Assembly: GCA_963695195.1 (NCBI GenBank)
Contig: CAVOGE010000007.1
Location: 408,494-472,493 of the forward strand
Reading direction: 5' to 3'
Length of the DNA stretch: 64,000 nt
Source: an uncultured Chloroflexia bacterium
Lineage (GTDB): Bacteria; Chloroflexota; Limnocylindria; QHBO01
This document shows positions 3,911 through 61,785 of this stretch, piece after piece (position 1 is the stretch's first letter; each line of letters opens with the position of its first letter). The position numbers were made by a program, and so were the translations under genes. The notes beneath the pieces were generated by a model. It ran no database searches. It saw nothing but the letters and a program-made list of their open reading frames with translations, and was not told the DNA's origin.

Positions 3911-5077
3911 ATGGCCCGCTTTGAGGGGACCGATCGGCGCCTGATCGGCCTCACCCTGCTCGTGAAGCTGGGCGTCCTTATGGCCGGTGCACTGGCGTAC
4001 GCCATCTTCACCAACGGCACCATCGCCGGGCCGCACGGGGCGCTGGAGCTTTGGAACCGCTGGGACGCGCCGCATTACCTCGACCTGGTCGTCTTCGGGT
4101 ATCGGGCGGCCGATGCCGGCGACCTGGTGGGCCCGAACGGGTATCGGTCCATCTACCCCGGTGACCTTCCGTTGTACATCGTCTTCTTCCCGCTCTTCCC
4201 GTGGATCTCCACGCTCGTCAATGCCGCCGTCTATGACCCGCTGGTGAGCGCGTTCGCGGTCGCCACCGTGGCTTCCGTCTTCGTGGCGCCGCTGCTGTAC
4301 CGGCTGGTGCGGCACGACGAGGGTCCCGCCGTGGCGATGCGCTCGGCATGGTTCCTGCTCATCTTCCCGACCGCCTACTTCCTGCATATCCCCTACACCG
4401 AGGCGCTCTTCATGGCGCTCGTGCTCGGCTCCTTCCTGGCGGCACGGACGGAGCGGTGGTGGCTGGCCGGCCTCCTCGGGGGGCTCGCCGCCATGACACG
4501 GGTCAACGGCCTGATCCTCATCCCGGCCCTGGCTGCCGAGGCTGTCTGGCAGTGGCTCCAGCGTCCGCCGGAGGAGCGGCGGATCCGTCCGGAATGGCTG
4601 GCGATCGGGCTGGTCGGGGTCGGGTTCGGCGTCTACCTGGGACTCAACCAGGTCGTCTACGGTGACCCGCTCACCTTCATGCGCGTCCAGAACGAGCACT
4701 GGTTCAAGTCACTCGCCCCGCCGTGGCACGGGATCGCGTCGGTCTGGGGCTGGGTCTCGAACGAGAACCTCGATTACGCCCTGATGATCGGTTGGATGGA
4801 GCTCCTCTTCATCGGCATCGGCCTGGCTGGGACGATGCATGCCGCCTTCCGGTTGCGGCCGTCGATGTTCGCCTGGATGGCCGGCAACTGGGTCCTCTTC
4901 GTCTCCACCTCGTTCGTGGTGAGTGTGCCGCGCTACTCGCTGACCTTGTTCCCGCTCTTCGTCTCGATGGCGATGCTCGCCGAGCGCCGATGGGTACTGA
5001 TCTCCCTCTCTGGGGTCAGCCTGGCCGCGATGGCCTACTTCGCCGGCCGCTTCGCCAACGGAGTCTGGGCGTTCTGA
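3911..5077 (+). CDS. GT-C fold membrane glycosyltransferase (PIG-V / DUF2029-like mannosyltransferase family)
   Basis: 388 aa, about 10 TM helices. An aromatic-rich loop follows TM1 ([12 protein letters not shown]), as in polyprenyl-phosphate-sugar-dependent GT-C enzymes. Family assignment rests on architecture and memory of homologs. Confidence 0.6.
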
Positions 5078-5706
5078 TGCGCGGACCCATGCGCGTGCTG
5101 GCTGTCGCCTCGACCCTTGGCCTGCTCTTGGTCGCGTGCGCACCGGCGGGCAGCGGTTCGCGCATTGGGCTCGGAACCGATGGCGGCGGGATCGCCTGGG
5201 GCGATGGCGACTACGGCGTCGTGCTGATCCACGACACCGGCACCGATGCGGCTGCCTGGGACGCGGTCGCCGTCACGATGGCCGAGCAGGGGATGACCGC
5301 GCTTGCGCCGGATGGGACCGACGCCGCCGCCGTGCGAGCGGCCATCGGCTACCTGCGGGATGAGCGTGGCCTTGAGCGCGTTGCGTTGGTCGCAGCGGGG
5401 AGTGGTGGGGCTGCGGCGCTGGTCGTCGGCCGGGAGTCACCCGATCTGGTCGATCAGCTGATCCTCATCTCCGTGCGGGGCGACGCCGCGACCGTGGCCG
5501 AGCTGGGCGACTTCCCAAAACTGTTCGCCGCCTCGTCAGGAGAGGCTGCCGCGGCTGCGGCAGAGGCGATGACCGGCGCCGCGCCGGGCCTGTGGAACGC
5601 CCTCTTCCTGGCCCCGGGATCGGCGAGCGGGCACGCGATCTTCGACTCGGATGGCGGGGACGAGCTCCTGGATGCGGTCCTCCGTCGGCTCGACGAGCGG
5701 CGCTAG
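5077..5706 (+). CDS. secreted alpha/beta-hydrolase-fold lipoprotein
   Basis: ATGA overlap with the upstream gene. Signal peptide and lipobox (LLLVACAPAG). VVLIHDTGTDAAAW and LVAAGSGGAAAL are hydrolase-like elements. Confidence 0.5.
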   Translation: MRGPMRVLAVASTLGLLLVACAPAGSGSRIGLGTDGGGIAWGDGDYGVVLIHDTGTDAAAWDAVAVTMAEQGMTALAPDGTDAAAVRAAIGYLRDERGLERVALVAAGSGGAAALVVGRESPDLVDQLILISVRGDAATVAELGDFPKLFAASSGEAAAAAAEAMTGAAPGLWNALFLAPGSASGHAIFDSDGGDELLDAVLRRLDERR

Positions 5707-5729
5707 CGGGGCTCATCGGCGCCGACCGC

Positions 5730-5850
5730 CACGGGGTGGCTACAACGGCCACCTTTGGGCTGAGCTTGGTCCCTGGACGGCCGATTGGCCACCCGAGGGC
5801 TCCCCGTGGCCACGCAGAGCGGTCATCTTGGCCGTTGTAGCCACCCCGTG
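5730..5850. repeat. perfect 22-bp inverted repeat pair (5730-5751 / 5829-5850) flanking a 77-bp spacer; MITE-like or structured regulatory element
   Basis: CACGGGGTGGCTACAACGGCCA is exactly reverse-complemented by TGGCCGTTGTAGCCACCCCGTG. An inner GGCCAC...GTGGCC hairpin lies in the spacer. Confidence 0.6.
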
Positions 5851-6033
5851 ATTGCGGGCTCGGGGCCACGCCGGGTTGCGTCCACCTCCGACCGGGACGC
5901 TCGACATCGTGATCGGCGGGCAAACGAAAGCCCCGGAGGAACCGCGGCGACCGTTGATGTGATCTCCAGTCGGCCAGCTGCCCCTCCGGGACGAGAGAAG
6001 CATGCCGCGCGGGGGATGCGGCCACAAGAGTGG

Positions 6034-6073
6034 TTATCCACAATCGATTGGACCGATCCCCGAGTTATCCACA
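6034..6073 (+). promoter_or_regulatory. two direct GTTATCCACA boxes (DnaA-box consensus TTATCCACA) 31 bp apart upstream of the cupredoxin gene
   Basis: Exact 9-mer TTATCCACA at 6034-6042 and 6065-6073. An AT-rich 10-mer recurring exactly in a 70% GC background is unlikely by chance. Confidence 0.35.
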
Positions 6074-6144
6074 GGGAATCCGCAGGCGTGCAGCCGCGCG
6101 CTCCACTGCTAGCATCCGCACGGCTGACAGGAAGGAGCCGAGGC

Positions 6145-6666
6145 ATGAGACAGGAAGGTCAGTTCACTCGCACCACGGGACGCCATGCCATTGCGGTCGG
6201 CGTCCTGCTTGCCGCCTCGTTGGTGCTGGCGGTGGCAGCCGGTCCGGCCCGCGCCGCCGATGCGGAGTGGGTGGACATCGTCGACTTCGCTTTCAGCCCC
6301 GCAACGATCACCATCAGCGTTGGCGACACGGTCACCTGGACGAATCGCGACAGCGTGGAGCACACCGCGACGGGCGCGGCCGGCGCGCCACAGCCCTTCG
6401 ACACCGGACTGCTTGGGACCGATCGGGGCGGGTCCGTCACCTTCACGGCTCCGGGCCGGTACGACTACTTCTGCGCCCCGCACCCGACAATGACGGGGAC
6501 CGTCGTGGTCGAACCGGCCGGGGCAGTACAGGTGCCAAACGCGGCATTGCCGCAGCCCCCTGGCGCCGGCGGAGCCGGTACCTACCGTGGGGTCGGCGTG
6601 CTGCTCGTGCTGACGCTGGTTGCGGCGGGGACCGTGGCTGTCCGACGCAGAGGTCGCGCCGGCTAG
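6145..6666 (+). CDS. cupredoxin (plastocyanin/pseudoazurin-like type-1 blue copper protein) with C-terminal membrane anchor
   Basis: GAAGGAG RBS before the ATG at 6145. Signal peptide present. Type-1 copper ligand pattern VEHTATG...YDYFCAPHPTMTG (His, Cys, His, Met). Hydrophobic C-terminal tail. Confidence 0.85.
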   Translation: MRQEGQFTRTTGRHAIAVGVLLAASLVLAVAAGPARAADAEWVDIVDFAFSPATITISVGDTVTWTNRDSVEHTATGAAGAPQPFDTGLLGTDRGGSVTFTAPGRYDYFCAPHPTMTGTVVVEPAGAVQVPNAALPQPPGAGGAGTYRGVGVLLVLTLVAAGTVAVRRRGRAG

Positions 6667-6667
6667 C

Positions 6668-8296
6668 TCACGCGCCCAGCGACCGAGCCTGCAGGGCGCA
6701 CAGCGCCTCGACCGCGTCGGGCGTTGGTAGCGGGATGCTGCCGGCAAGGTGCCCGTCGGGGCGGATCAGGAAGGCGCGGGGTCCGGCCGCCCCGTAGGCG
6801 CGCCGGATCTCGCCGTGCGGGTCGGTGAGCACGGTGACGCCGGCCAGGGCGCCGCTCGCGCCCAGCACCGCCACCCGGCAGCCGGCCGACCACGACAGTC
6901 GGGATGCTCGGACCGCCGCATGTGCTGCCGCCTGCTGATCGTCGAGGACGAGAAGCCCCACGAAGCCGGCCCCGAACAGGTCGCGCAGGCGACTGACCGG
7001 TGTCTCCCCGCTGAGGGCGCCGCACCGGGCGTCGGGCGCCACCGCCCCGTGGACCGGAAGGCGAGCGTCATCCCCCCGACCGGCCACGATCGGCGAGGCG
7101 GCGTAACTGAACGGCTCCGCCAGGTGCCCCGAATTGACCCTGCGTCGCAGGCGCTTCGTGCGCACGCTCCCGCGCAGGATGGCGTTGCGCATCGCCCGCG
7201 CGATCGGCCCGCGCGGGACCATGAAACGCATCGTGGCGTCGGTGACGGCCAGGTTCTCCAGTGCCGCGGCGCGTCGCTCGGCCCCGTAGCTGTCCAGCAG
7301 CGCATCGGGCGCCCGGCCGGCGACCACGGCGGCCAGTTTCCAGGCGAGATTCTCGGCGTCGTCCGCCCCCGAGTTGAGACCGCGCGCGCCGAACGGGCTC
7401 ACCTGGTGGGCGGCGTCGCCCGCCAGGAAGACCCGGCCGATCCGGAATCGGTCAACCAGGCGCTGGTGGAATCGGTACGCGGTCGCCCAGACCAGCTCGT
7501 ACTCGGTGGTCGGACCGATCACCCTGCGGATTCGGCGATCGAGCCTGCCGCTGGACCGCTCGGCGTCAAGATCGGTCCCGGAGGGGACCTGCCAGTCGAT
7601 CCGCCAGACATCATCGGGCTGGGGATGGATGAGGACCTGGCGACCGGGGTTCCACGGCGGGTCGAAGAAGAAGCGCCGCTCGCGCGGGAAGGGCAGCTTG
7701 GCGCGGATGTCGCAAATCAGGAACAGGTCGGGGTGCGAGTGCCCGGGGAACCCCATCCCGAGCAGGTGACGGACCGATGAATGGGCGCCATCGGTACCCA
7801 CCAGGTAGCCGACCCGCAGCGAGGCCGGGCCGTGCGGTGCGTCGCACGCCACCGTGACGCCATCGGGATCCTGGGTGACGGCGGTGACGCGGTGGCCCCA
7901 GCGCAGGTCAATGCTGGGGAGCTCACCCAGCCGCGCGAGGAGCATCGCCTCGACCTCGGTCTGGTTGATGTTGACGAACGGCGGGAAGTGCTCGTCGCCC
8001 GCCCCGGGAAGCCGGATGGCGAACAGCTCGCGGTTGCGGAAGTAGGTCCGCCCCACGTCCCACTGCACCCCGCGCTCCGCGACCGCCTCCCCCACCCCCA
8101 GGCGGGCCCATGTCTCGAGCGTCTCGCGCTGCATGCAGAGCGCCTTGCTCCCCTCGCCGGTGTGGTGCGGATGCTGCTCGAGCAGGACGACCGATACACC
8201 CTGCTGCGCCAGCCGTCCGGCGAGCGTCATCCCGACCGGGCCAGCGCCGACCACTCCCACCTGGGCGTCTACGTCGCTCTGCGTTCCCGCGGGCAC
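6668..8296 (-). CDS. FAD-dependent aromatic-ring monooxygenase (PheA/TfdB/MhpA family)
   Basis: N-terminal GVVGAGPVGMTLAGRLAQQG dinucleotide-binding motif. GTDGAHSSVR and GRVFLAGDAAHQVSPFGARGLNSGADDAENLAWKL motifs. C-terminal thioredoxin-like domain. 542 aa. Confidence 0.9.
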   Translation of the reverse strand: MPAGTQSDVDAQVGVVGAGPVGMTLAGRLAQQGVSVVLLEQHPHHTGEGSKALCMQRETLETWARLGVGEAVAERGVQWDVGRTYFRNRELFAIRLPGAGDEHFPPFVNINQTEVEAMLLARLGELPSIDLRWGHRVTAVTQDPDGVTVACDAPHGPASLRVGYLVGTDGAHSSVRHLLGMGFPGHSHPDLFLICDIRAKLPFPRERRFFFDPPWNPGRQVLIHPQPDDVWRIDWQVPSGTDLDAERSSGRLDRRIRRVIGPTTEYELVWATAYRFHQRLVDRFRIGRVFLAGDAAHQVSPFGARGLNSGADDAENLAWKLAAVVAGRAPDALLDSYGAERRAAALENLAVTDATMRFMVPRGPIARAMRNAILRGSVRTKRLRRRVNSGHLAEPFSYAASPIVAGRGDDARLPVHGAVAPDARCGALSGETPVSRLRDLFGAGFVGLLVLDDQQAAAHAAVRASRLSWSAGCRVAVLGASGALAGVTVLTDPHGEIRRAYGAAGPRAFLIRPDGHLAGSIPLPTPDAVEALCALQARSLGA

Positions 8297-8320
8297 GCTC
8301 CGATGATAGGCGCTAGGCCG

Positions 8321-9280
8321 TCAGCTGGCCGTCAGCTGGTCCCAGACCTCGCGGTCGCGCTCCACCGTCCAGATCCGCGGGTGGTCGATACCGTCGAGTT
8401 CATCCCACGCCCGCTGCACATTGAACGGCATGGTGTGCTCGAAGATCGGGAAGCGGCCGTACCTCGCTTCGAGCGCTTCGCGGGTGGACCGATACGCCTG
8501 GGCCGGCGTGCCGCCGCCATCCTTCACGGCCCGAGTGCCGTCCAGGACGGCCGAGAGGAAGGCGCGGGTGTCCTCGATGGCCCGCTTGACGGCCGATGCT
8601 CCCCGGACAACCGGGCCGCGGCCACCGACGAGCTGCTTGGCGCCGAGCGCAGCCACGGCGTCGAGGGTGGTGCTGCGCCACTCCCCGATGTGCGCGTCAC
8701 CCATGTAGGGAGCCGCCTGGGCCTCGACAAGATCCCCGGCGAAGCAGATGCGCTCGTCGGGCAGCCAGACCACGATGTCGCCGGCCGTGTGGCCCCGCCC
8801 CAGGTACCGCAGTTCGACCGCGCGGCCACCCACCTCCATCGCCAGCACGTCGGTGAAGGTGTGCGTCGGACGCGTCAGGCCGGGGATCGTCTCGGCGCCG
8901 GCAAAGAGGCGTGGCATCCGCGCCGCCTCGCTGGCCCAGTCCTCGTTTCCTCGCTCCTCGATCCATGCGGCGGTGTTGGCGTGGGCGATGATCTTGGGCG
9001 CGTTGAAGGCCGCCGCGCCCAGCACGCGCACGGCGTGGTAGTGGGTCAGCACCAGGTCGCGGAACGGGAGGTCGGTGAAGGTCCGGATCACGTCGATCCA
9101 GCGCTGCGCCATCACCGGCGTGGCGCGCGCCTCGATGGCGAGCAACGCATCGGTCCCGACAATGCACCCGACGTTGGGGTCACCCTGCGCGGTGTAAGCG
9201 TAGACGCCCTCCGCCAACTTCTCGAGGGTGGCCGCCTTTTCCTGGAGATCCGCGGATGAGGCGAAGGGCTTGCTGCTCAC
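8321..9280 (-). CDS. MBL-fold metallo-hydrolase family protein (degenerate HxHxDH motif)
   Basis: YLGRGHTAGDIVVWLPDERICFAGDLVE is an MBL-type beta-strand/metal-site region. The first motif is THYHAVR rather than the canonical HxHxDH. GTG start chosen where the protein-like sequence begins; the upstream part of ORF 8321..9607 is Arg/Pro junk. Confidence 0.55.
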   Translation of the reverse strand: MSSKPFASSADLQEKAATLEKLAEGVYAYTAQGDPNVGCIVGTDALLAIEARATPVMAQRWIDVIRTFTDLPFRDLVLTHYHAVRVLGAAAFNAPKIIAHANTAAWIEERGNEDWASEAARMPRLFAGAETIPGLTRPTHTFTDVLAMEVGGRAVELRYLGRGHTAGDIVVWLPDERICFAGDLVEAQAAPYMGDAHIGEWRSTTLDAVAALGAKQLVGGRGPVVRGASAVKRAIEDTRAFLSAVLDGTRAVKDGGGTPAQAYRSTREALEARYGRFPIFEHTMPFNVQRAWDELDGIDHPRIWTVERDREVWDQLTAS

Positions 9281-9348
9281 GTCGTGATGATACGAGTCGG
9301 TAAGTCGTGGATAACGGCGCGATAACGTGCGGTGCCCATGCTGGCGCG

Positions 9349-9567
9349 ATGGGCAGGCGACTCCGCGACACCTCCCTGACCCTCCGTATCGACCCCGACG
9401 TGGTGCTGTGGGCACGCATGCGCGCTCTTCGCTCGGGCACGAGCGTGAACCAGATGGTGCGACAGTTCCTGGAGGAGTACGCAGCCGTGCCGTCGGGCTT
9501 CTGGGAGGGTCTGCCGCCGCCGTGGGATTCCAGTGAGCAGTCGGCTTCGGCGGCTTCGCCTGACTAG
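9349..9567 (+). CDS. small ribbon-helix-helix (CopG/Arc-like) DNA-binding protein, possible orphan antitoxin-type regulator
   Basis: SLTLRIDPDVVLWARMRALRSGTSVNQMVRQFLEEYA has a beta-strand followed by two helices, the RHH pattern. No toxin partner is visible. Confidence 0.35.
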   Translation: MGRRLRDTSLTLRIDPDVVLWARMRALRSGTSVNQMVRQFLEEYAAVPSGFWEGLPPPWDSSEQSASAASPD

Positions 9568-9596
9568 GACGGCGTCGGCCTGGCCCACCGGCCCTC

Positions 9597-9790
9597 GTCA
9601 GGGGCATTCATGCACCCGTGCAGTCGTGCAGTCGTGCTGCACGAACGGTCCTGACAGTGGCGCCAGGGCGACACCGCCGGCCCGCCGGCTTCTGTCAGGG
9701 GCATTCATGCACCCGTGCAGTCGTGCAGTCGTCCTGCACGAACGGTCCTGACAGTGGCGGGGGCTACCGCCGCCGGCCCGCCAGCCGGCT
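9597..9790. repeat. tandem duplication (2 x 97 bp, ~90% identical) of a nested-palindrome element at the convergent RHH/serA junction
   Basis: Unit 1 spans 9597-9693 and unit 2 spans 9694-9790. Each unit holds GTCAGG...CCTGAC around an inner CGTGCAG...CTGCACG palindrome. Unit 2 ends at the serA stop codon. Confidence 0.7.
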
Positions 9791-11387
9791 ACAGCGCCGG
9801 CAGCTGCACCACGCGCACGCGGATCATGCCGGGCACGGATGCCAGTCGCTCGAGCAGCGCACCCGACACGTCCTGGTCGACGCTGACGAACATCAGCGCC
9901 TCGCCGGCGGGCGACAGCCGCGACAGCTCGAGCGACGAGATGTTGACGCGCGCCTCGGCCAACGCGCTGCCAACGGCACCCACGATCCCCGGCTGGTCAT
10001 GGTGACGGGTGATCAGGATGGTGCCGGCCAGATCGGCATCAGTCTCGAAGCCGTCCAGGCTCGCCAGCCGCGGACGCCCGCGGGAGGTGGAGCCGGCCAA
10101 TCGCACGGCGCCCTTCCCCTCGCCGAGTTCGAGGGTGAGGAGCGAGGACCACGGGTCGGCGACATCGGTGCGGTTCTCGTGGACGGTGAGGCCGCGCTCA
10201 GCGGCGACGAGGTCGGCGTTGACCGCGTTGACCCGCTGATCGGTGATCGGCTCGAGCAGGCCGGCCAGCACCGCGGTGCGCATCGGGGTGCCGTCCCAGG
10301 CGGAGATCTCGCCCGCATAGGTCAGCGTAAGGGTGTCTGCGGGCGCCGGCACGAGTTGCCTGCCCAGGATCGCCAGTCGGCGGGCGAGCTCGACGAATGG
10401 ACGCAGCTGCGGGGCAACGCCAGCCGCGACCGGCGGGGCGTTCACCGCGTACGGCGGCGTCACGCCGGAGAGGGCAAGCAGCACCTGCTCCGCCACCTCC
10501 AGGCCGGCGCGTGCCTGGGCTTCCGCCGTGGACGCGCCCAGGTGCGGGGTCAGCACCGTGTTCGGCGCGCTGCGGAGGGGGTTGTCGGGAGCCATCGGTT
10601 CGGCCGAGTAGACATCGACGGCCGCGCCCGCCAAGCGTCCCTCGTGCAGCGCTTCCGCCAGGGCATCCTCGTCGACCAGTCCGCCCCGAGCCACGTTCAG
10701 CAGGACGGTGCCGGACTTCATGGTCGCGAACTGCGCACGACCGATGAGTCCGCGCGTCTCCGGCGACAGCAGCACGTGGACGGTAACCACGTCCGATGCC
10801 GCCAGCAGCTCCGGCAGACCGACGAGCGTCACGCCCTGCTCTGCCGCTTGCTCCGCGGTGAGAAAGGGGTCGTAGGCGATCACCTGCATCTCGAACGCCG
10901 CAGCTCGCCGCGCGACCGCCTTCCCGATCTTCCCCAGGCCGATAACGCCGAGCGTCTTCCCCCGCAGTTCGGCGCCGATGTAGGTGGCCCGCTCCCACTC
11001 ACCGCGACGGACCGATGCGTCCGCCGTCGGGATGCGCCGCATGAGCGAGAGCATGAGCGCCATGGTGTGCTCGGCCGCCGCAGTGGTGCTTCCGGTCGGG
11101 GCGTTGACCACCATCACGCCGGCGTGGGTGGCGGCGTCCAGGTCGACGCGGTCGGTGCCAACCGATCCCACGCCGACCACCGACAGGCGGGGCGCGGCGG
11201 CCGCCAGCAGCTCCGCGTCCACACGCGTCTGGGAGCGAACGATCAGCGCGTCCCAGCCACCCCCCTCGGATAGCGCCGCGAGCAGCTCAGCGCGGGGCGG
11301 GCGGTTGCGGAACGACGTCTCGTGCGCGGCGGTGAGCAGGTCGATGCCGGCCTGCGCGATCGGCTCGGCAACCAGGATGCGGGGCAT
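9789..11387 (-). CDS. serA: D-3-phosphoglycerate dehydrogenase (long form with ASB and ACT domains)
   Basis: 532 aa. NAD-binding GVIGLGKIGKAVARR. Catalytic region LLNVARGGLVDEDAL...TPHLGASTAEAQ. C-terminal ACT domain (ILITRHHDQPGIVGAVGSALAEARVNIS). Confidence 0.95.
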   Translation of the reverse strand: MPRILVAEPIAQAGIDLLTAAHETSFRNRPPRAELLAALSEGGGWDALIVRSQTRVDAELLAAAAPRLSVVGVGSVGTDRVDLDAATHAGVMVVNAPTGSTTAAAEHTMALMLSLMRRIPTADASVRRGEWERATYIGAELRGKTLGVIGLGKIGKAVARRAAAFEMQVIAYDPFLTAEQAAEQGVTLVGLPELLAASDVVTVHVLLSPETRGLIGRAQFATMKSGTVLLNVARGGLVDEDALAEALHEGRLAGAAVDVYSAEPMAPDNPLRSAPNTVLTPHLGASTAEAQARAGLEVAEQVLLALSGVTPPYAVNAPPVAAGVAPQLRPFVELARRLAILGRQLVPAPADTLTLTYAGEISAWDGTPMRTAVLAGLLEPITDQRVNAVNADLVAAERGLTVHENRTDVADPWSSLLTLELGEGKGAVRLAGSTSRGRPRLASLDGFETDADLAGTILITRHHDQPGIVGAVGSALAEARVNISSLELSRLSPAGEALMFVSVDQDVSGALLERLASVPGMIRVRVVQLPAL

Positions 11388-11418
11388 GCTCCGAGTCTAG
11401 CGGCCCGGTGCGGGGAAC

Positions 11419-12177
11419 CTATGGCGCCCCAACGTAAGTCACCGTGACCTTGACGACCCGCAGGTCGATGCCAGCGGAGCCAGTGAGGGAGCAACGGGCT
11501 TGGTAGGCGTAGATGGCATTGTCGATGGGCGGGCCGCTGATCGTGGTGTCGACGAGCGTGGTGTAGCCGGGGGTGGCGGCTCCTCCGGAGCTCGGGGTGG
11601 AGGCCAGACCTGCCACGACGCCGTCTGACGTGACCCGCTGGAGACTGCACAATGTCCCGTAGGTGGCGGTGTTGTCGTACACGTCGCCCGCGAAGGCGGT
11701 GAGGGTGGCGCCATCGGGCAGGTGCACCGCGCAGGTCAGGGAGTCGATGCCAGAGGTCAGGTAGCGCTCGGCGAAGGTGCCGCCCAGGTAGCCGGTCGTG
11801 CTCATTGTGGGTGCCATGTCGTTGCCGGCGCAGCTGTAGTGCTGGGTCTGGTCCTTGCGCGCAAACTGGGACGAATCGATCCCATCGAGCTTGTCGGCGT
11901 TGACCACCGGGGTCTTGCCCGCAGCCAGCGCACCCAGCCGGTTCATGAAGGCCGCCATCTCGGCGCGGGTCACGTTGCGATCCGGACAGTACTTGCCGCC
12001 ACCACAGCCACTGGTCACCCCGGCATTGGTGATGGCCGCGATGTCAGCGTGGAACGGGTTGGAGTTGGGCACATCGCTGTACTGGTGGCTGGCCAACACG
12101 CCGAGCGGGAAGGCGACCAGGGTCAGGCTCAGGGCCAGTACCGCGACCGCACGACGAGACGAGATGGATCGACGCAT
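11419..12177 (-). CDS. secreted SLH-like domain protein (single N-terminal SLH, variable C-terminal domain)
   Basis: Signal peptide, then YSDVPNSNPFHADIAAITNAGVTSGCGGGKYCPDRNVTRAEMAAFMNRLGA, which matches the SLH pattern (F.D..., I..L...GI..G, VTRAEMA, F..RL). Paralog of 14115..14912. Confidence 0.75.
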   Translation of the reverse strand: MRRSISSRRAVAVLALSLTLVAFPLGVLASHQYSDVPNSNPFHADIAAITNAGVTSGCGGGKYCPDRNVTRAEMAAFMNRLGALAAGKTPVVNADKLDGIDSSQFARKDQTQHYSCAGNDMAPTMSTTGYLGGTFAERYLTSGIDSLTCAVHLPDGATLTAFAGDVYDNTATYGTLCSLQRVTSDGVVAGLASTPSSGGAATPGYTTLVDTTISGPPIDNAIYAYQARCSLTGSAGIDLRVVKVTVTYVGAP

Positions 12178-12282
12178 TCGGACACTCCGCAGTCCGGACA
12201 GGCGCGGGCCGTCGTGGCGATCAGCCGATGGTGACGTCAGGCCGGGATCGTGAGCGTCATTGTGGGGCCCGGGTCAACGTGG

Positions 12283-13989
12283 TCATAGCGCCCGATGCAG
12301 GAAGGCCGCCATCTGCTCGCGGGTGACGTTGCCCAGCGGGCAGTACAGGCCCGGCCCACAGCCGGAGGTGATGCCAGCTGCGCGGAAGGCGTTGATATCC
12401 GCTTCGTGGACGCTCGTCTCGTCATCGCTGAAGTAGTCGGTGGCAGTCGGCGGGAGGTCCATGGCGCGCACCAGGAATGAGGCCATCTGGGCACGGGAGA
12501 CGTTCGCCAGCGGGCAATACAGTCCGTCGCCGCAGCCGGTGGTGATCCCGGCGTCCGCCAGCGCGTTGATATCGGCCTCGTGGATGCTGGTCTCGTCATC
12601 GGGGAAGTAGTCGGTAGCGGTGGGTGGCAGCTTCAGGGCGCGCACCAGGAACGAGGCCATCTGGGCGCGGGAGACATTGGCCAGCGGGCAATAGTAGCCC
12701 CCGCCGCAGCCGGTGGTGATGCCGGCGTAGTAGAGCCAGTTGATGTCGTCGAGGAACGGCGAGGTGGTGACGTCGCCGAACGGCGGCGCCACGACGCGGT
12801 AGAGCGCGCCACCCAGGTGCGTGGCGTACAACTCGCCGCCCTCGCTCTCGCCGAACGAGCTGATGTTGAGCGACACCTGGCGGCGCTCTGTCGCCGCACT
12901 GCCACCGACCGGGATGGTCCACAGGCGTCCCGAGCAGTAGTCGGCGAAGACGTACTCGCCGAGCAGGTCCGGCTGCGTCGTTCCGCGGTACACGAAGCCG
13001 CCGGTCACCGAGCATCCGAGGCTGTGGCTGTACTCGGCGATCGGCAGCGTCAGCCCGGACTGGTTGCACGAGCCCGACGCGTAGCAGTGCGCGCCCTCCA
13101 TGACGTTCCAGCCATAGTTACGCCCGCCGGGATCGGCGAGCGCTTCTCGGTCGATCTCCTCCCAGCTGCCCTGGCCGACATCGCCGATCCACAGTGCCCC
13201 GGTCGATCGGTCGAAGCTGAAGCGCCAAGGGTTTCGGAGGCCGGAGGCCCAGATCTCCTCGAGCTCGGGGCCGCCGACGAATGGGTTGGTTGCCGGGATG
13301 GCGTACGTGCCGAAGGTGCCGTCACCGGAGCCGTCGACGTCGATGCGGAGGATCTTGCCCAGCAGCGTGGCCGTCGACTGCCCGTTGTCATCCGGGTCGC
13401 CACTGCCCCCGCCATCGCCGGTGCCGATGTACAGGTAGCTGTCAGAGCGAAAGGCGAGCTGTCCGCCGTTGTGGTTGCTGTTGGCGCTGTGCTCAATCCG
13501 CATGAGGAACTGCTCCGTCGCGCTGCTCGCCGCGGCAAGCCCGATGTTCGCCGTAAAGCGCGAGACGACCAGGTCGCCATCGGCCCTGGTGTAGTACACG
13601 TAGAAGAACCGGTTCGTCGTGAAGTCCGGATGGAAGGCAAGCCCCAGCAGGCCGCGCTCACCGCCCGCCAGGACGCGGTGGGTGATGTCGAGGAACGACC
13701 CGGCCTGCACTTTGCCGTTGAGCACCACCCGGATCCGGCCAGGGCGCTCCACCACGAAGAGGCGACCCGATCCGTCGCCCGCGTTGGTGACCGCGACCGG
13801 CGATGAGAGGCCTGTGGTGACCAGCTGCAGGTCGAGCTGATTCGCCGCCAGCGCCACCGGGGCGGCGGCGGCGATCGCGGGCTGCGGCTCCGGACGGGCT
13901 GCGACCGCCGGTGGCGTGGCCATCACAAGACCCAACAGCGCGAGCCCGATTGCAGCTTGCGAGCCGGGGCGACTGCCAGTGGGTCTCAT
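12283..13989 (-). CDS. PQQ-dependent soluble sugar (glucose/sorbosone) dehydrogenase beta-propeller fused to three C-terminal SLH-like repeats
   Basis: GSDH-family motifs NHNGGQLAFRSDSYLYIGTGDGGGSGDP and GLRNPWRFSFD. Three repeats of ...GITTGCG.G.YCPLANVSRAQMASFLVRAL at the C-terminus. Signal peptide present. Confidence 0.85.
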   Translation of the reverse strand: MRPTGSRPGSQAAIGLALLGLVMATPPAVAARPEPQPAIAAAAPVALAANQLDLQLVTTGLSSPVAVTNAGDGSGRLFVVERPGRIRVVLNGKVQAGSFLDITHRVLAGGERGLLGLAFHPDFTTNRFFYVYYTRADGDLVVSRFTANIGLAAASSATEQFLMRIEHSANSNHNGGQLAFRSDSYLYIGTGDGGGSGDPDDNGQSTATLLGKILRIDVDGSGDGTFGTYAIPATNPFVGGPELEEIWASGLRNPWRFSFDRSTGALWIGDVGQGSWEEIDREALADPGGRNYGWNVMEGAHCYASGSCNQSGLTLPIAEYSHSLGCSVTGGFVYRGTTQPDLLGEYVFADYCSGRLWTIPVGGSAATERRQVSLNISSFGESEGGELYATHLGGALYRVVAPPFGDVTTSPFLDDINWLYYAGITTGCGGGYYCPLANVSRAQMASFLVRALKLPPTATDYFPDDETSIHEADINALADAGITTGCGDGLYCPLANVSRAQMASFLVRAMDLPPTATDYFSDDETSVHEADINAFRAAGITSGCGPGLYCPLGNVTREQMAAFLHRAL

Positions 13990-14059
13990 GGGGCGCCCAC
14001 TCTACATCCGGGTTGCCAGTTGAAAGGGTCGAGGATGCGGGGGATGCAGCCGATCATCG

Positions 14060-14094
14060 AGAAGGAGCGCCCCCGCGTCGGGAGCGCTCCTTCT
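14060..14094 (-). terminator. stem-loop (11-bp perfect stem, 13-nt loop) immediately downstream of SLH gene 14115..14912
   Basis: AGAAGGAGCGC-ccccgcgtcggga-GCGCTCCTTCT. No U-tract follows, which is usual at this GC content. Confidence 0.4.
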
Positions 14095-14114
14095 CATCGG
14101 GAACCAAAGGCAGC

Positions 14115-14912
14115 CTAGGGCGCCTCTTTCACCGGCTTGGAGGCATCGTGCGGACTCAGGATGATCAGGCACGACAGGAACGGGGTGTTCCCCGCGCCGT
14201 CAAACGGAATGTACTCGACCATCAGGCTCGACTGGAGGATGTTCAGGTCGGCCCCGATGCTCCCGAACTCGAAGTCGACGGTGTAGGTCGCAGCGTCGCA
14301 CACCCGGTAGCCACCGGACGAGTTGCACGTCGTCTCATCCAGGACGGCGCCGCCGGAGACCCACTGGGTATCGACCCATCGATTCGAGCCCGACACCGCA
14401 CTGTTGTCGACCTCGAGCCAGCAGTTGGCGTCGTCGGTTCCGCCGGACGTTTCGTTATAGACGTACGACGTCCCGGTGATCATCAGGTACCCCCAGCCCG
14501 GGGTCGTGATGGTCGTCGTCAAGCGACCGCTGGAAGCCGCATCGCCGTCAACGGTGGTGGTGTTGTTGCTGGTGTAGGCGAGGCGGTTGAGCTCGTTGGC
14601 ACTCCAGCCATCGACCTTGGTGGCATTGACCACCGGGGTCTTGTTCGACGCCAGCGCACCCAGCCGGTTCATGAAGGCGGCCATCTCGGCGCGGGTCACG
14701 TTGCGATCAGGACAGTAGTTGCCGCCACCACAGCCGGATGTCACGCCGGCATTGGTGATGGCCGTGATGTCCCCGTGGAACGGGTTGCTGTCGGGGACGT
14801 CGCCGTACTGGTGGGTCGCCAGGGCCCCCAGCGGGAAGGCGACCAGGGCGACCACCATCGCGAGCGCGGCCAGGGCGCGCGGTCGGCGGCGGGATGGTCG
14901 GGGATCGGGCAT
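14115..14912 (-). CDS. secreted SLH-like domain protein, paralog of 11419..12177 with a different Ser/Thr/Gly-rich C-terminal domain
   Basis: AAGGAGGA RBS before the ATG at 14912. The first ~95 aa are near-identical to the paralog (YGDVPDSNPFHGDITAITNAGVTSGCGGGNYCPDRNVTRAEMAAFMNRLGALA). The C-terminus is unrelated. Confidence 0.75.
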   Translation of the reverse strand: MPDPRPSRRRPRALAALAMVVALVAFPLGALATHQYGDVPDSNPFHGDITAITNAGVTSGCGGGNYCPDRNVTRAEMAAFMNRLGALASNKTPVVNATKVDGWSANELNRLAYTSNNTTTVDGDAASSGRLTTTITTPGWGYLMITGTSYVYNETSGGTDDANCWLEVDNSAVSGSNRWVDTQWVSGGAVLDETTCNSSGGYRVCDAATYTVDFEFGSIGADLNILQSSLMVEYIPFDGAGNTPFLSCLIILSPHDASKPVKEAP

Positions 14913-14984
14913 CGCTGAAATCTCCTCCTTCGTCCGGGCGGCTTGCTGCTTCGCGCAGCGGAGTTGCATCGTATCGTGGCGGGC

Positions 14985-16403
14985 ATGCACGAAGCACCCT
15001 TCTCGCGCAGGTTCCCTGTCCGTGTACTACCGCGCTCCGCGCTGGTGCTGCTCCTCGCCGCGATGGCCGCCGTCGCCGTCGGCGATCTACTCGAGGTCGT
15101 GGCACGGCTGCGCATGGGCCTGGACGCCAGCGTAGGAGGGGGAGGACTCGCATTGACGCTGGCGGCCGTGCTGGCCTCGGCGCTGCTGATCCTGTGGCTC
15201 ACGCGGCGTCCCGTGCGGGATCGTCTCGACCCCGCCGCCCTGCTGGTTGGCCTGGGGCTGTTGCTTGCATTGAGAGTCGTGGCGGTGCTCCTCGTGGACG
15301 CACCCCTGATCGTGGATTGGCGCCGTTATCACGAGCTGGCAGTCAGCATCTCGCAGGGCGGCGACTGGTTCGCCAGTCGACCGAGCGGCTACGCGCTGCT
15401 AGTCAGCGTCGGTTACCGGGTCTTCGGCCCGAGCCCTGCGGTTGGCGAGTGGCTGAACGTGGGGCTTGGATTGGCGAGCGGCCTGCTCATCTACGCTGTG
15501 GCACTGCGAGCGGCGGGGTCCCGTGCGGCAGGCGTGGCCCTGCTGCTGTACGCCGTCGCCCCAGCCGAGATCCTGATGACCCCCGTCCTGGGCACCGAAA
15601 TCGCATACGGAACCGTCCTCGTCGGCGTCGCCTGGGTGCTCCTGGCCGCTCCACTCTCCGTCGTCCGAGCCGCCGTCGCCGGCGCGGCGCTCGGTGCCTC
15701 CCAGTACGTGCGCGCCACAAGCCAGGTGCTGGCACCCGTTCTGGCGATCGGGGCCGGGTGGCTGGCAGCCCCGGGCCGGCGCCTGCTGATCGGCCTTGCC
15801 TTCGCGGCGTCATTCGCCGCCGTGCTCCCACCCGTGGTCGTGACCAACATGGAGCGCGGCTCGGGTCCTTCTCTCTCGACCTCGTCGTTTTCGGCGTGGC
15901 AGCTGCTGATCGGCACCAACCAGGAGCACGACGGGCGCTTCAACCCGGACGACGTTGCGCTGGTGGGCGGAGAAGCGGCCCTGGGGACGGCGGAGGCCGA
16001 GCGCATCGCGCTGAGAGTTGCCCTGGAGAGGATCGGCGAGGACCCGGTCGGCACGCTCGGCCTGGTTGTGCGCAAGTTCCCCGTCGTGTGGGGTGACGCC
16101 CACTACGGCGCTCGCTGGGCGCTGTACGAAGACCCGGCCCAGGAGCCACAGACGACGCAGGCGTTCGTGCTGCTCAGTCAGCTCGCCTGGGCGGTGGTCG
16201 CGGCACTCGCCGCGGTGGGTGCCTGGCGCGGACGCGCCGGCTCGGCGCAGACAGTGGCGCTGCTGGGTGCGATCCTTGCCGTCTTCGTGCTGGTCCATGC
16301 CCTCGGCGAGGCGAATCCCCGCTACCACGCACCGCTGGTGCCGATCTTCAGCGTGCTGGCCGGTATCGGCGCGGCCAACTTGCTGGCGAACCGGGAGAGT
16401 TAG
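14985..16403 (+). CDS. GT-C membrane glycosyltransferase, PMT/ArnT-like (GT39/GT83 family)
   Basis: Multi-TM protein with the first-loop DxxRYxExA motif (DWRRYHELAVSISQG) typical of polyprenyl-P-sugar-dependent PMT/ArnT transferases. The 3' end overlaps the SLH beta-helix gene by 4 nt. Confidence 0.7.
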   Translation: MHEAPFSRRFPVRVLPRSALVLLLAAMAAVAVGDLLEVVARLRMGLDASVGGGGLALTLAAVLASALLILWLTRRPVRDRLDPAALLVGLGLLLALRVVAVLLVDAPLIVDWRRYHELAVSISQGGDWFASRPSGYALLVSVGYRVFGPSPAVGEWLNVGLGLASGLLIYAVALRAAGSRAAGVALLLYAVAPAEILMTPVLGTEIAYGTVLVGVAWVLLAAPLSVVRAAVAGAALGASQYVRATSQVLAPVLAIGAGWLAAPGRRLLIGLAFAASFAAVLPPVVVTNMERGSGPSLSTSSFSAWQLLIGTNQEHDGRFNPDDVALVGGEAALGTAEAERIALRVALERIGEDPVGTLGLVVRKFPVVWGDAHYGARWALYEDPAQEPQTTQAFVLLSQLAWAVVAALAAVGAWRGRAGSAQTVALLGAILAVFVLVHALGEANPRYHAPLVPIFSVLAGIGAANLLANRES

Positions 16404-18649
16404 CGGAAGGCGCGGTGCAGGAAGGCGGCCATCTGGCCACGGGTGACCAGCCCCTTGGGGCAGTAGGTCGTGGCCGTGCAGCCACTGGTGATGCCCGCCG
16501 CTGCGATGGCGTTGATCGCCGCCTGGTGGATGCTCGCGGAGTCATCGGTGAAGAAGTCAGTGGCCGACGGTGGCAGATGCAATGCCCGGGCGAGGAATGA
16601 GGCCATCTGCTCTCGGGTGACCGATGCGGTCGGGCAGTAGAGGCGCGTCCCGCAGCCGCTGGCGACGCCGGCCGCGGCGACGCGGTTGATATCGGCCTCG
16701 AACATGGATCCGTCGTCGTCATCGAAGGCGTCGGGCGCGCTTCCTGCCAGGCCGAGCGCCCGCGACAGGAATGCTGCCATCTGCCCGCGCGAGACCACCG
16801 CGTCCGGGCAGTATCGGTCTGGCGCGCACCCGCTGGTGATGCCGGCGTCGGCGATCCAGATGATGTCGTCCCGGAAGATCGAGTTGGCGATGTCGATGAA
16901 TCCGTCCGCCCATTTGGCGCCAACCGGGGTCCCACCAACGCCTGCGGAGTACTGGAACGAGTTGCTGCCCACGGTCAGGAAGCCAGGATCGGAGGTGAGC
17001 GTGCTCAGGTAGCCAGGCGGCTGGTAGTTCACGGCGGTGGCGCTCGGGCTGCCGAGCAGGTCCGCGCCGGTGTTGCCGTACAGGCCGCTGTGGTCGAGTG
17101 TCGCCGAGTTGCCGGTCACCAGCCAGACGCCGTAGCCACGGTTGCCGGTGACGAGCGTGTGGTTGATGGTGATGCTCGACGGCGCGACCTGGTAGCCGCC
17201 GATCTTGACCCCTTCGGCCCGGTTCCACCAGATCGTGTCGTGGTCGAGCGTCTTGTTGCTCGTCCCACGATCGACCATGACGCCGATCCCGTTGTCCCAG
17301 TACAGATTCCGTGACGACGTGAGGCGGCCGGCGCCGGAACCGTTGTATCCGTCGAACAGGTACAGGCCGAATCGACGGTTTCCCCAGACCTCGTTGCGCT
17401 CGACCAGCGTGTCCTGCACCGCCGGCATGCTCGATGCCTCCTGGGTGACATGGACCCCGACATCGTTGCCCCAGATGCGGTTTTCGCTCACCGTGGTGGT
17501 GCGCGCGCCATTGGCCACCGTGATCCCCGACGCGTTGTTGTAGGCGCTGCCGGTCGGATTGAAGTCCTGGTCGTGGAGGTCGTTGCGGCAGACGAGGTTG
17601 CCGCTGGTCGTACCCGTGTAACTGCTTCCCGAGACGGGGCCCTGCACCTTGATCCCCTGGAGCCCGTTGTCGTGGACGTCGTTGTCGCAGACGGTGGCGC
17701 CGGTGGTGCCCTCGTCGAGCTTGATCGCCTGGAGCGTGTTGAAGGCAGCCTCGTTGCGCTGGATGAGTGCACCGGTCGCAGGGTCAGCGCCCGAGCCTGT
17801 CTGCTCGCCGGAAACGGCCACCCCCATGTACAGGTTGCCGATCAGCCGGTTGTCGGATGCCTCGCCGTTATCGACCCCCTTGGCGAAGGCGATCCCATTG
17901 GCCGAGTGCCGGACCTCGAAGCCGCGCACCGCGACGTTATTGACGGGGTAGCGGCCGTCGAAGTAGAAGGCGTTGCGCACGATGACATCGATCCGATGGC
18001 TTCCCGGATTCGCGGCGGGCACGGTCGAGAGATACAGCTGCTTGGCCGCCGAATCCCACCAGTAGCCGCCGAGGCCGCTCGCCGCCCGGGAATTCAGCGC
18101 GGACAGGCTGGTCTGCTCCCAGAGCCAGGTCGTCTCGTCCTGGAAGACGGCCGTCTTGATCGAGCCGCTCGAGGTCGGGAAGCCGAACGGCGCAGTCGTC
18201 CAGGGCGTCTTCCAGACACCAGCCGTTCCGGTCGAGGACCAGCTCTTGCCGGGTGCCGGGGCGGCATCGGCGCCGGACACGACCGGCCGCGTGTATCCGC
18301 TGCTGGTGCCGTTGTAGCCGTATGCCTCGAATGCAATCGGCGCACTCACGCTGCCATACCGGTCCCAACTGGGCGGCACGGGTCGCTCGCGGTAGACGTA
18401 GTCGGCATAGCCGACAACCTGGATCGTCCAGCCGGCGGCAGACCCCGCCGGCAGGCTGCTGGCGGCTTTGCTGATCGTCTTGAAGGCCGATCCCAGGCTC
18501 GTCCCGGCGTCGCTGTCACTGCCGGTCTTGCCGTCCACGTAGAAGGTGCCGCCGGCAGCTGCGGCCGCGGGGGGCGGTGCAACCGCAAGCAGCGTCGCCA
18601 TCAGCGCGACGGCGGAGAGCAGGGAGACACAACGGCGAACGGCAGCCAT
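16400..18649 (-). CDS. secreted right-handed parallel beta-helix (pectate-lyase-like, PbH1 repeats) protein with three C-terminal SLH-like repeats
   Basis: Signal peptide. Repeated N.(V/I)W.N..G... beta-helix rungs (NRIWGNDVGVHV, NEVWGNRRFGLYL, NLYWDNGIGVMV, TIWWNRAEGVKI). C-terminal 3x ...AGITSGC....YCP..VTR.QMA.FL.RA. Confidence 0.8.
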   Translation of the reverse strand: MAAVRRCVSLLSAVALMATLLAVAPPPAAAAAGGTFYVDGKTGSDSDAGTSLGSAFKTISKAASSLPAGSAAGWTIQVVGYADYVYRERPVPPSWDRYGSVSAPIAFEAYGYNGTSSGYTRPVVSGADAAPAPGKSWSSTGTAGVWKTPWTTAPFGFPTSSGSIKTAVFQDETTWLWEQTSLSALNSRAASGLGGYWWDSAAKQLYLSTVPAANPGSHRIDVIVRNAFYFDGRYPVNNVAVRGFEVRHSANGIAFAKGVDNGEASDNRLIGNLYMGVAVSGEQTGSGADPATGALIQRNEAAFNTLQAIKLDEGTTGATVCDNDVHDNGLQGIKVQGPVSGSSYTGTTSGNLVCRNDLHDQDFNPTGSAYNNASGITVANGARTTTVSENRIWGNDVGVHVTQEASSMPAVQDTLVERNEVWGNRRFGLYLFDGYNGSGAGRLTSSRNLYWDNGIGVMVDRGTSNKTLDHDTIWWNRAEGVKIGGYQVAPSSITINHTLVTGNRGYGVWLVTGNSATLDHSGLYGNTGADLLGSPSATAVNYQPPGYLSTLTSDPGFLTVGSNSFQYSAGVGGTPVGAKWADGFIDIANSIFRDDIIWIADAGITSGCAPDRYCPDAVVSRGQMAAFLSRALGLAGSAPDAFDDDDGSMFEADINRVAAAGVASGCGTRLYCPTASVTREQMASFLARALHLPPSATDFFTDDSASIHQAAINAIAAAGITSGCTATTYCPKGLVTRGQMAAFLHRAFR

Positions 18650-18721
18650 GCACAGATGGTGGACCCCATCGGTGGCAGAGCCAACGGTACAAGGCGGTCA
18701 GCGCGGGTAGGACCGTTGGCG

Positions 18722-26101: not shown

Positions 26102-26108
26102 CTCCGAC

Positions 26109-43154: not shown

Positions 43155-43198
43155 GGTGCCACAAGGTCGATGCGCGCAAAGGCGCTAGCATCGGACGC

Positions 43199-44347: not shown

Positions 44348-44360
44348 TCCCGAGCCAGAA

Positions 44361-45812: not shown

Positions 45813-46015
45813 GACCAGCCGCCGGTGTGACGCAGGCGGACCTCAGCCCTCCCGCTCGCCAGTGTAGGGGTCGGGCGACGACATGCGCAAAGGTACTAAC
45901 CACACTCGAACAACCTTCTGGCGCATGGATGCACCACCTTGCTCGGAGGGCCGGAGCGTGCCGTTTGCTAGAATCAAGCCCCGCCAGCCTCCCCGACGTC
46001 CCATTTGCAGGTGCC

Positions 46016-48532: not shown

Positions 48533-48537
48533 GCGCC

Positions 48538-50711: not shown

Positions 50712-50741
50712 CAGCGCGTGGACTCCTCCATCAATGCGTGG

Positions 50742-61754: not shown

Positions 61755-61785
61755 GCGTGCTCCATTGGGGCGGCAATTGTATCCA

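Follow-up and report, generated by a model that had tools for sequence, protein, structure and literature searches.

A GT-C-fold glycosyltransferase gene among SLH and cell wall polysaccharide genes of an uncultured Chloroflexota bacterium

GT-C1 and the surface-anchoring genes around it

The window studied here is a 64-kb stretch of DNA with 69% G+C from contig CAVOGE010000007.1, part of an uncultured high-GC Chloroflexota genome, in which genes were called by third-position GC. At 14985..16403 on the plus strand it contains the gene for a 472-residue membrane glycosyltransferase of the GT-C fold, referred to here as GT-C1, which, by its sequence, is a member of the PMT_2/ArnT-like superfamily and there of a lineage-restricted clade. 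Relatives of this protein are labelled Candidatus Limnocylindria, Chloroflexota or Chloroflexia. The gene lies between two genes for proteins with S-layer homology (SLH) domains, both on the minus strand, and a gene set for a secondary cell wall polysaccharide (SCWP) starts one gene past it. A sequence-only reading of the DNA had treated 3911..16403 as a candidate system for protein O-mannosylation of the SLH proteins, in which GT-C1 and a second GT-C protein (GT-C2) would be served by a Ppm1-type synthase of the mannose donor.

The start codon of GT-C1 is the ATG at 14985, as in its orthologs; the list of open reading frames (ORFs) gives a TTG at 14943. The SLH gene upstream (14115..14912, minus strand) starts with an ATG at 14912 that is preceded by a GGAGGAG ribosome-binding site, which corrects a proposed start at 14990 overlapping GT-C1. 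The two genes are divergent, with starts 72 bp apart and no overlap. On the other side, the TAG stop codon of GT-C1 (16401-16403) overlaps the TAA stop codon (complement 16400-16402) of the convergent SLH gene at 16400..18649. The described position of GT-C1, between two SLH genes and with its stop overlapping one of them, is thus borne out by the sequence at 16400-16403. Head-to-tail co-transcription with these genes, which had also been proposed, is not possible because GT-C1 is on the opposite strand to both neighbors. A consensus scan of 13900..18800 returned 0 promoter-like sites, and terminator-like sites were at chance level.

According to searches with Pfam and a custom SLH hidden Markov model (HMM), the 64 kb encode four SLH proteins and no more, each of them between 11.4 and 18.7 kb on the minus strand. 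Two are secreted proteins with a single N-terminal SLH repeat, encoded at 11419..12177 and 14115..14912; both match Pfam SLH and score 92.8 and 90.9 bits, respectively, with the custom HMM. The gene at 12283..13989 encodes a glucose/sorbosone-dehydrogenase-like (GSDH) beta-propeller (Pfam GSDH, 149 bits) with three C-terminal SLH repeats, and the gene at 16400..18649 encodes a right-handed beta-helix surface protein (Pfam Beta_helix and SLH), also with three C-terminal SLH repeats. The passenger domains, which comprise GSDH, beta-helix and small domains, are unrelated. The SLH proteins beside GT-C1 have the SCWP-binding module in common, rather than a shared target of glycosylation.

A Ser/Thr/Gly-rich character had been noted for the C-terminal domains of both single-SLH proteins. 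Ser and Thr make up 22% of these domains, compared with 10% of 20 cytoplasmic proteins encoded in the window, but the domains are not of low complexity (their entropy equals background) and are poor in Pro (4%). The linkers modified by actinobacterial Pmt are rich in Pro, Thr and Ala. The single-SLH C-terminal domains look instead like typical secreted beta-rich domains. When PHROGs and the Protein Data Bank (PDB) were searched with the small SLH proteins, only the SLH module was matched and nothing was found on the C-terminal domain.

The SLH repeats themselves show several features. A segment KTPVVNA[DT]K[LV]DG is conserved after the SLH repeat of both single-SLH proteins (11419..12177 and 14115..14912). 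Among PDB sequences, these two proteins best match the Sap SLH domain and the single-SLH proteins 8bz2 and 8bys, each listed with 3 chains, and they may trimerize to rebuild a three-SLH binding unit, like OmpM and SlpA. All eight SLH repeats of the window contain a Cys pair, G-C-x4-Y-C-P, that is situated between two helices and just before the TRAE-type motif; it may represent a disulfide-stabilized SLH variant.

The ligand of SLH domains is pyruvylated beta-N-acetylmannosamine (ManNAc), made with MnaA and CsaB, and csaA-csaB adjoin S-layer genes in Bacillus anthracis and Paenibacillus alvei (PMC6030368, PMC6081394, PMC11464976). Because the pyruvylated polymer is the SLH ligand, a position beside the anchor-polymer genes is the expected place for SLH genes. 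By Pfam, the SLH proteins, CsaB, a UDP-GlcNAc 2-epimerase and a Wzx-like CsaA are all encoded within one locus of the window. The polymer genes begin with a GT4 glycosyltransferase gene on the minus strand (18722..~19950; Pfam GT4 and GT1), the start of which is approximate (relatives have 402-441 residues). Four plus-strand genes follow. They encode an MnaA-like UDP-GlcNAc 2-epimerase for UDP-ManNAc supply (19989..21110; Pfam Epimerase_2, 310 bits), a CsaA-like Wzx-type flippase with 10 hydrophobic segments (21104..22471; Pfam Polysacc_synt), a CsaB-like polysaccharide pyruvyl transferase (22468..23535; Pfam PS_pyruv_trans, 104.5 bits), the start of which overlaps the end of the flippase gene, and a second GT4 enzyme (23532..24704; Pfam).

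The cluster continues on the minus strand with a Wzy_C-domain membrane protein (24614..26416), a polymerase or ligase and candidate O-oligosaccharyltransferase, which scores 30.5 bits with Wzy_C against a threshold of 31.7. Its start is probably internal (relatives have 511-514 residues), and its orthologs at the related loci L007 and L008 carry Wzy_C. A hexapeptide-repeat acyltransferase (26109..27266; Pfam Hexapep) and a PIG-L family de-N-acetylase (27287..27931; Pfam PIG-L, 71.8 bits) are also encoded on the minus strand, and an initiating polyprenyl-phosphate phosphoglycosyl transferase (PGT) is encoded on the plus strand (28423..29829; Pfam Bac_transf, 234 bits). Further along are two LytR-CpsA-Psr (LCP) ligases, which join glycopolymers to peptidoglycan, at 41781..43154 on the minus strand and at 45827..47437 on the plus strand (Pfam LytR_cpsA_psr, 117 and 88.6 bits). 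Judged by gene content, the SLH/CsaB anchoring module and the polymer genes appear to form one surface-anchoring island in which GT-C1 is embedded.

Beyond this island, two further Wzx/Wzy/PGT-type sets (31543..34019 and 47438..51053) and nucleotide-sugar enzymes are present, so that a cell-envelope glycopolymer region makes up most of the 64 kb. Within 41781..47437, the LCP ligases flank a DUF3048 gene and a GGDEF diguanylate cyclase gene.

Family, fold and conserved residues of the GT-C proteins

The sole Pfam match of GT-C1 is PMT_2 (PF13231), with 16.9 bits, which is under the gathering score of 26.1. PMT (PF02366), PMT_4TMC (PF16192), GT87 and PIG-V were not matched even at E ≤ 10, and no NCBIfam family was matched. 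Single-sequence phmmer searches of the PDB gave no matches for either GT-C1 or GT-C2. With a profile of the GT-C1 family, AglB alone was found in the PDB, as a weak match (E 5e-4) around the second of the acidic residues described below. A word-indexed search with GT-C1 retrieved 17 relatives only, and the same type of search with a wide profile of the family added few usable ones. In an exhaustive profile search, cluster representatives of the family numbered 514 at a cut-off of E ≤ 1e-30 and 7706 at one of E ≤ 1e-10. When 64 members of this HMMER-defined family were sampled, 46 matched PMT_2 at E ≤ 0.001 and 0 matched PF02366, which would place GT-C1, as part of a divergent clade, within the large bacterial superfamily of PMT_2/ArnT-like proteins.

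Some distant members of the family differ in length and domain content. P0271, which is longer, matches PF02366 with 26.6 bits, and P0161 has a C-terminal extension of ~390 residues without a domain assignment. Three others (P0213, P0251 and P0252) end in a Cu_amine_oxidN1 domain (PF07833), which in surface proteins of Firmicutes is a module associated with the wall.

An AlphaFold2 model of GT-C1, built with 16 sequences, has a predicted local distance difference test score (pLDDT) of 84 and a predicted template modeling score (pTM) of 0.88. The model assigns the GT-C fold to the protein with high confidence. When the model is ranked against known structures, ArnT scores highest (21.3), followed by AglB (19.7), ALG12 (19.5), GPI-MT-I (18.8), Pmt4 (16.8) and Pmt2 (15.1), and Pmt is not the nearest structural neighbor. 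The extracytoplasmic region of the model is small and contains no carbohydrate-binding domain. As modeled, the fold does not tell lipid, protein and glycan acceptors apart. The earlier description of GT-C1 as a PMT/ArnT-like GT-C therefore holds for the fold, but the sequence families of the GT39 Pmt enzymes are not matched, and ArnT and AglB are structurally closer.

A DxxRY loop motif, which had been pointed out in GT-C1, is present as D111-W-R-R-Y115, but the motif of the family as a whole is D/E-x-x-x-Y. Of the 64 sampled members, 63 have an acidic residue at position 111 and 46 keep Tyr-115, and neither Arg is conserved. The position of Glu-205 is likewise acidic in all but one of the 64 (63/64). 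Arg-243, Lys-364 and Arg-446, within an E-x-x-x-R-Y-H C-terminal motif, are invariant in the family. Asp-111 is predicted to lie outside the membrane in an N-in topology from the positive-inside distribution, the cues for which are an Arg-rich N terminus and the sequence RRPVRDR between helices 2 and 3. Like GT39 Pmt, GT-C1 has the GT-C fold and, in its first extracytoplasmic loop, an acidic residue.

GT-C2 (3911..5077, plus strand) is a GT-C protein of 388 residues that is highly conserved in Limnocylindria-type Chloroflexota. A GT-C gene is present at this position, but the label PIG-V-like that it had been given is not supported: PIG-V/Mannosyl_trans2 (PF04188) was not matched at E ≤ 10, and GT87 (PF09594) gave 10 bits with E 0.64, which is not significant. 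The only family matched is PMT_2, with 27.0 bits, just over the threshold of 26.1. Homologs number 1538, with >100 clusters that have ≥65% identity, and a few kinds of label, such as "Gpi18-like mannosyltransferase" and "glycosyltransferase family 39", are attached to some of them; some of those at ~70% identity carry precomputed PF04188 entries. In NCBIfam there was a far-subthreshold match to "cell surface glycopolymer formation" only, and a GT-C2 profile matched nothing in the PDB. The structural model is of moderate quality (pLDDT 69). An hhalign comparison of GT-C2 with GT-C1 gave a probability of 51%, a remote relation.

The neighbors of GT-C2 are RibD_C, a lipoprotein-like ORF, a cupredoxin-like ORF and metabolic genes, which is not a glycan or SLH context. 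GT-C2 differs from PIG-V/Gpi18 (GT76) and PimE (GT87) in that it matches PMT_2 only (27 bits) and lacks a glycolipid or glycan gene context. It remains ~5 kb from GT-C1 in the related locus L001. In the window, genes for an FAD monooxygenase, a metallo-beta-lactamase-fold protein and serA lie between GT-C2 and GT-C1. The treatment of 3911..16403 as a single system was rejected, as unrelated metabolic genes separate two GT-C genes that are only remotely related. No functional tie of GT-C2 to the SLH system was found, and it is treated here as a separate, housekeeping-type GT-C. Between the lipoprotein-like and cupredoxin-like ORFs, a stretch of ~450 bp (5706..6150) shows a third-position GC signal in no frame, and such a non-coding stretch is unusually long for so compact a genome.

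Gene context of GT-C1 in related loci

Profile scans for GT-C1 loci gave 3 loci from genome contigs, with a narrow alignment, and 10 from metagenomes, most of them short. An SLH gene adjoins the GT-C gene in 10 of the 10 loci with at least 47% identity to GT-C1, and in one further lineage at ~36%. The loci most similar to the window, L008 (88%) and L007 (62%), keep the order SLH, GT-C, beta-helix-SLH, GT4, MnaA, Wzx, CsaB, GT4 and Wzy_C. Four loci at 47-50% identity (L001, L003, L004 and L013) are rearranged, with a convergent FAD oxidoreductase gene instead of the beta-helix protein gene and with insertions of transposases or of a metallo-beta-lactamase-fold gene. Still, all four have an SLH gene divergently upstream of the GT-C gene and more SLH genes flanking it. 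The physical association of GT-C1 with SLH genes is real and evolutionarily conserved. L004 (CAYWNR010000181.1) is labelled "uncultured Gemmatimonadaceae", and its order of SLH, GT-C, SLH and serA is that of the Limnocylindria-type loci, with 47-69% identity; it is probably a mis-binned contig.

At greater distance, the GT-C gene is found in an operon with csaB in two independent lineages. In L021 (38% identity), genes for DUF5693, CsaB and the GT-C are on one strand, with a gap of 18 bp between the last two, and a GSDH gene converges on them; SLH repeats were not detected at this locus, where csaB and the GSDH-like gene are present. In L022 and L023 (~36%), genes for an epimerase, a glycosyltransferase, Wzx, CsaB and the GT-C are on one strand, the GT-C gene after a 139-bp gap, and a convergent single-SLH gene lies beyond it. 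An LCP gene is situated downstream of the GT-C gene in L017, and in L009 a family member with 23% identity is found among GT4, Wzy_C, GtrA and WecG genes. Thus, the partner of the GT-C1 clade that recurs over the widest distance is csaB, in the same operon, and the SLH genes come second.

No description of this csaB-linked, Chloroflexota-centered GT-C clade was found in the literature searched, and neither was one of a GT-C gene embedded among SLH genes or, as in the relatives, within the csaB operon. For DUF5693, whose gene (L021, 499..3428) is directly upstream of csaB and the GT-C gene on the same strand, the search gave no relevant literature. A gene for a GSDH-like beta-propeller accompanies the GT-C gene both in the window (12283..13989, fused to three SLH repeats) and in L021 (4843..6105, convergent).

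Acceptor, donor and relation to known systems

The recurring link to csaB suggests that GT-C1 may be an extracytoplasmic GT-C enzyme of the SCWP pathway that acts on the pyruvylated SCWP or on a flipped lipid-linked repeat unit. We hold this view tentatively, at a little short of an even chance. It is favored by the csaB-to-GT-C operons that recur at 36-38% identity and by the SLH partners, which share only the SCWP-binding module. The gene order kept in L007 and L008, the LCP gene of L017, the neighbors of the L009 family member and the Cu_amine_oxidN1 domains of distant members also speak for it. The SCWP would be made by a Wzx/Wzy route that involves the PGT, the GT4 enzymes, MnaA, the CsaA-like flippase, CsaB and the Wzy_C protein. 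It would be pyruvylated and contain ManNAc, and the LCP ligases would attach it to peptidoglycan. At the outer face of the membrane, GT-C1 would take a sugar from a polyprenyl-phosphate-sugar donor and pass it to the SCWP or to the flipped repeat unit. Asp-111, in the first outward loop, and Glu-205 would engage the acceptor and any metal, and the donor phosphate would be held by the invariant Arg-243, Lys-364 and Arg-446.

A plausible, unlinked donor synthase is encoded at 55822..56598 on the minus strand. This protein is a DPM1/Ppm1-like GT2 (Pfam Glycos_transf_2) with no transmembrane segment and a candidate polyprenyl-phosphate-sugar synthase. Its best solved relative is the Dol-P-Man synthase from Pyrococcus furiosus (5mlz; E 5e-37, residues 18-253), and its best NCBIfam matches, AglJ, PpgS and a Dol-P-hexose transferase, are all far under the equivalog cut-offs. 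The GT2 had been taken for a Ppm1-type enzyme that makes the mannose donor. The similarity to DPM1 and Ppm1 agrees with the first part of this description, but the operon partners do not speak for the second. The start of the GT2 gene overlaps the stop of an NDP-sugar dehydrogenase gene (56595..57869, minus strand; UDP-ManNAc dehydrogenase-like, NCBIfam TIGR03026 with 316 bits), an arrangement of translational coupling, and it lies downstream of a 2-epimerase/DegT ORF. As far as their sequences tell, none of these partners (the UDP-ManNAc dehydrogenase-like enzyme, the 2-epimerase and the DegT aminotransferase) is indicative of mannose.

The 2-epimerase/DegT ORF (58909..61776, minus strand) has 955 residues, with a UDP-GlcNAc 2-epimerase at 234-557, a DegT aminotransferase at 597-940 and an unassigned N-terminal stretch of ~230 residues. 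A genuine fusion and two genes that share a frame are both conceivable, and the ORF and the dehydrogenase together point to the synthesis of an amino-uronic acid sugar. The flippase candidates seen in the window are two Wzx-type genes, and GtrA was seen beside the 23%-identity relative in L009. The window has a single small multi-transmembrane ORF, at 487..924 on the minus strand, and a GtrA-like flippase could be sought locally in this ORF alone; its 145 residues include four hydrophobic segments, and Pfam gave no match.

Several observations weigh against the assignment of GT-C1 to the SCWP pathway. Gene context cannot separate an action on the SCWP from an action on the SLH proteins, as both gene sets are adjacent. 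GT-C1 is 4.7 kb from the csaAB operon, with two intervening genes on the opposite strand, and the two additional polysaccharide clusters of the window could equally supply the acceptor. Among nine distinct loci at 35-41% identity, five are without envelope-related neighbors (L005, L006, L014, L024 and L016, the last with a pyrophosphatase only; L015 was not annotated). On the donor side, the only DPM1-like GT2 of the window lies 39 kb from GT-C1, and in a tblastn search of L001-L021 (L022-L025 were left out) the GT-C relatives had no copy of it next to them. A GtrA-type flippase (PF04138) was not found among the ORFs of the window that were scanned.

The acceptor of GT-C1 could lie outside the SLH/SCWP system altogether, as a membrane glycolipid or lipoglycan or another polysaccharide of the window, in which case the adjacency to SLH genes would be synteny inherited in one lineage. 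This is a lesser possibility that we consider somewhat doubtful. It would agree with the lipid acceptor of ArnT, the best structural match, with the absence of envelope-related neighbors from about half of the loci at 35-41% identity, with the presence of two other Wzx/Wzy/PGT clusters and with a small extracytoplasmic region that has no carbohydrate-binding domain. Inherited synteny is harder to reconcile with L001, L003 and L004, where the SLH linkage survives rearrangement despite different intervening genes, or with the csaB-to-GT-C operons that recur in lineages at only 36-38% identity. The position of the GT-C gene directly downstream of wzx-csaB in L021 and L022, and the fact that linked GT-A or GtrA partners were not found, would also fit an oligosaccharyltransferase or ligase that transfers en bloc a pyruvylated unit, linked to polyprenyl diphosphate and already flipped, for example as an SCWP cap with pyruvyl-ManNAc, or to protein. 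Such an activity is highly improbable for a protein of 472 residues with a short external region and neither a WWDYG-type motif nor a large periplasmic domain, and the Wzy_C and LCP proteins are already there for polymerization and ligation.

Protein O-mannosylation of the SLH proteins, as put forward in the sequence-only reading, found no specific support: a csaA/csaB/mnaA/Wzy/PGT cluster adjoins GT-C1, which lacks the sequence hallmarks of Pmt. In a broader form, GT-C1 would be a Pmt-like enzyme that O-glycosylates Ser and Thr residues of the neighboring SLH proteins during secretion, with a donor from the DPM1-like GT2, and this we regard as unlikely. SLH genes flank the GT-C gene in all orthologs with at least 47% identity and in L022, GT-C1 shares the 72-bp divergent spacer with one SLH gene, Ser + Thr are enriched about two-fold in SLH proteins and the GT2 resembles a Dol-P-Man synthase. 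However, the opposite strands leave no co-transcription, PF02366 and PMT_4TMC are unmatched with PMT_2 under its threshold, and ArnT, the top structural match, has a lipid acceptor. The Ser/Thr-rich regions are neither of low complexity nor rich in Pro, and the passenger domains of the flanking SLH proteins vary between loci. The partner conserved at the greatest divergence is csaB, with which the GT-C gene shares an operon, and L021 has csaB and a GSDH-like gene with no SLH repeat detected. Moreover, in the SLH/SCWP organism whose PMT_2 GT-C has been characterized, it is the polymer that this enzyme modifies (PMC8035078).

Any S-layer glycosylation that does take place could be ascribed to the two Wzy_C proteins with at least equal reason. 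The WsaB/WsfB-type O-oligosaccharyltransferases of Firmicutes belong to the Wzy_C family. There is also a small chance that the csaB/SLH-coupled GT-C clade carries out a step of SLH display unseen in model organisms, such as a non-GT39 O-glycosylation of SLH proteins or the creation or capping of the SLH ligand. If true, the former would be a new bacterial S-layer route, distinct from that of the Firmicutes O-oligosaccharyltransferases of the Wzy_C type.

The assignment of GT-C1 to the SCWP pathway has its closest parallel in B. anthracis, where GtsA (GT-A), GtsB (GtrA-type) and GtsC (a PMT_2 GT-C) alpha-galactosylate the SLH-binding SCWP and not the S-layer proteins; for other PMT_2 GT-C enzymes (GtlB, GttB, CsdD, CsdF and GacL) the acceptors are teichoic acids and wall polysaccharides (PMC8035078). 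As with GtsABC, there is a GT-C of the PMT_2-like type, predicted SLH anchoring on a pyruvylated ManNAc SCWP via Wzx/Wzy and CsaB, a candidate GT-A-type polyprenyl-phosphate-sugar synthase in the genome region and LCP ligases, and as in multi-component transmembrane glycosylation systems in general (GtsABC, CsbB-GtcA-YfhO) the GT-C gene is near acceptor-polymer genes. In contrast to GtsC, GT-C1 is under the Pfam PMT_2 threshold and belongs to a Chloroflexota-centered clade. The window also lacks a gtsABC-like operon, with the GT2 39 kb off and no GtrA-type flippase found.

Two other GT-C systems are less similar. ArnT (GT83) is larger than GT-C1 and has a periplasmic domain, GT-C1 has no ArnT-level match in NCBIfam or Pfam, and neither lipid A nor arn genes were found among the window genes scanned. 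The actinobacterial Pmt (GT39)/Ppm1 system resembles the window in its GT-C fold, in a soluble GT2 of the DPM1/Ppm1 type and in secreted Ser/Thr-rich proteins encoded next door. Unlike in that system, PF02366 and PF16192 are absent, the Pmt structures rank under ArnT, AglB and ALG12, there is no co-transcription with the putative targets, and the GT2 of the window is in an operon with a UDP-ManNAc-dehydrogenase-like gene and not with mannose-pathway genes.

The anchoring module itself is similar to sap-eag-csaAB of B. anthracis and to SpaA/CsaB/MnaA of P. alvei, with TRAE-type SLH repeats, csaB beside a Wzx-like csaA, MnaA and SLH genes that adjoin polymer genes (PMC6030368, PMC6081394, PMC11464976). 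It differs from these in its Chloroflexota host, in the single SLH repeat of two of the four SLH proteins and in the GT-C gene, which is among the SLH genes here and within the csaB operon in relatives. This kind of system is already known.

The PMT_2 label "Dolichyl-phosphate-mannose-protein mannosyltransferase" is not evidence for protein O-mannosylation, and annotations that carry it call for caution. For SLH/SCWP systems, multi-component transmembrane glycosylation has so far been established for B. anthracis only. If GT-C1 decorates the SCWP, this type of glycosylation would extend past the Firmicutes to an uncultured class of Chloroflexota that is abundant in soil and freshwater, and the csaB-linked GT-C clade would be a marker of SCWP modification. 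It would also mean that the SLH/CsaB module and the polymer genes are organized as one island in a phylum with a debated envelope architecture.

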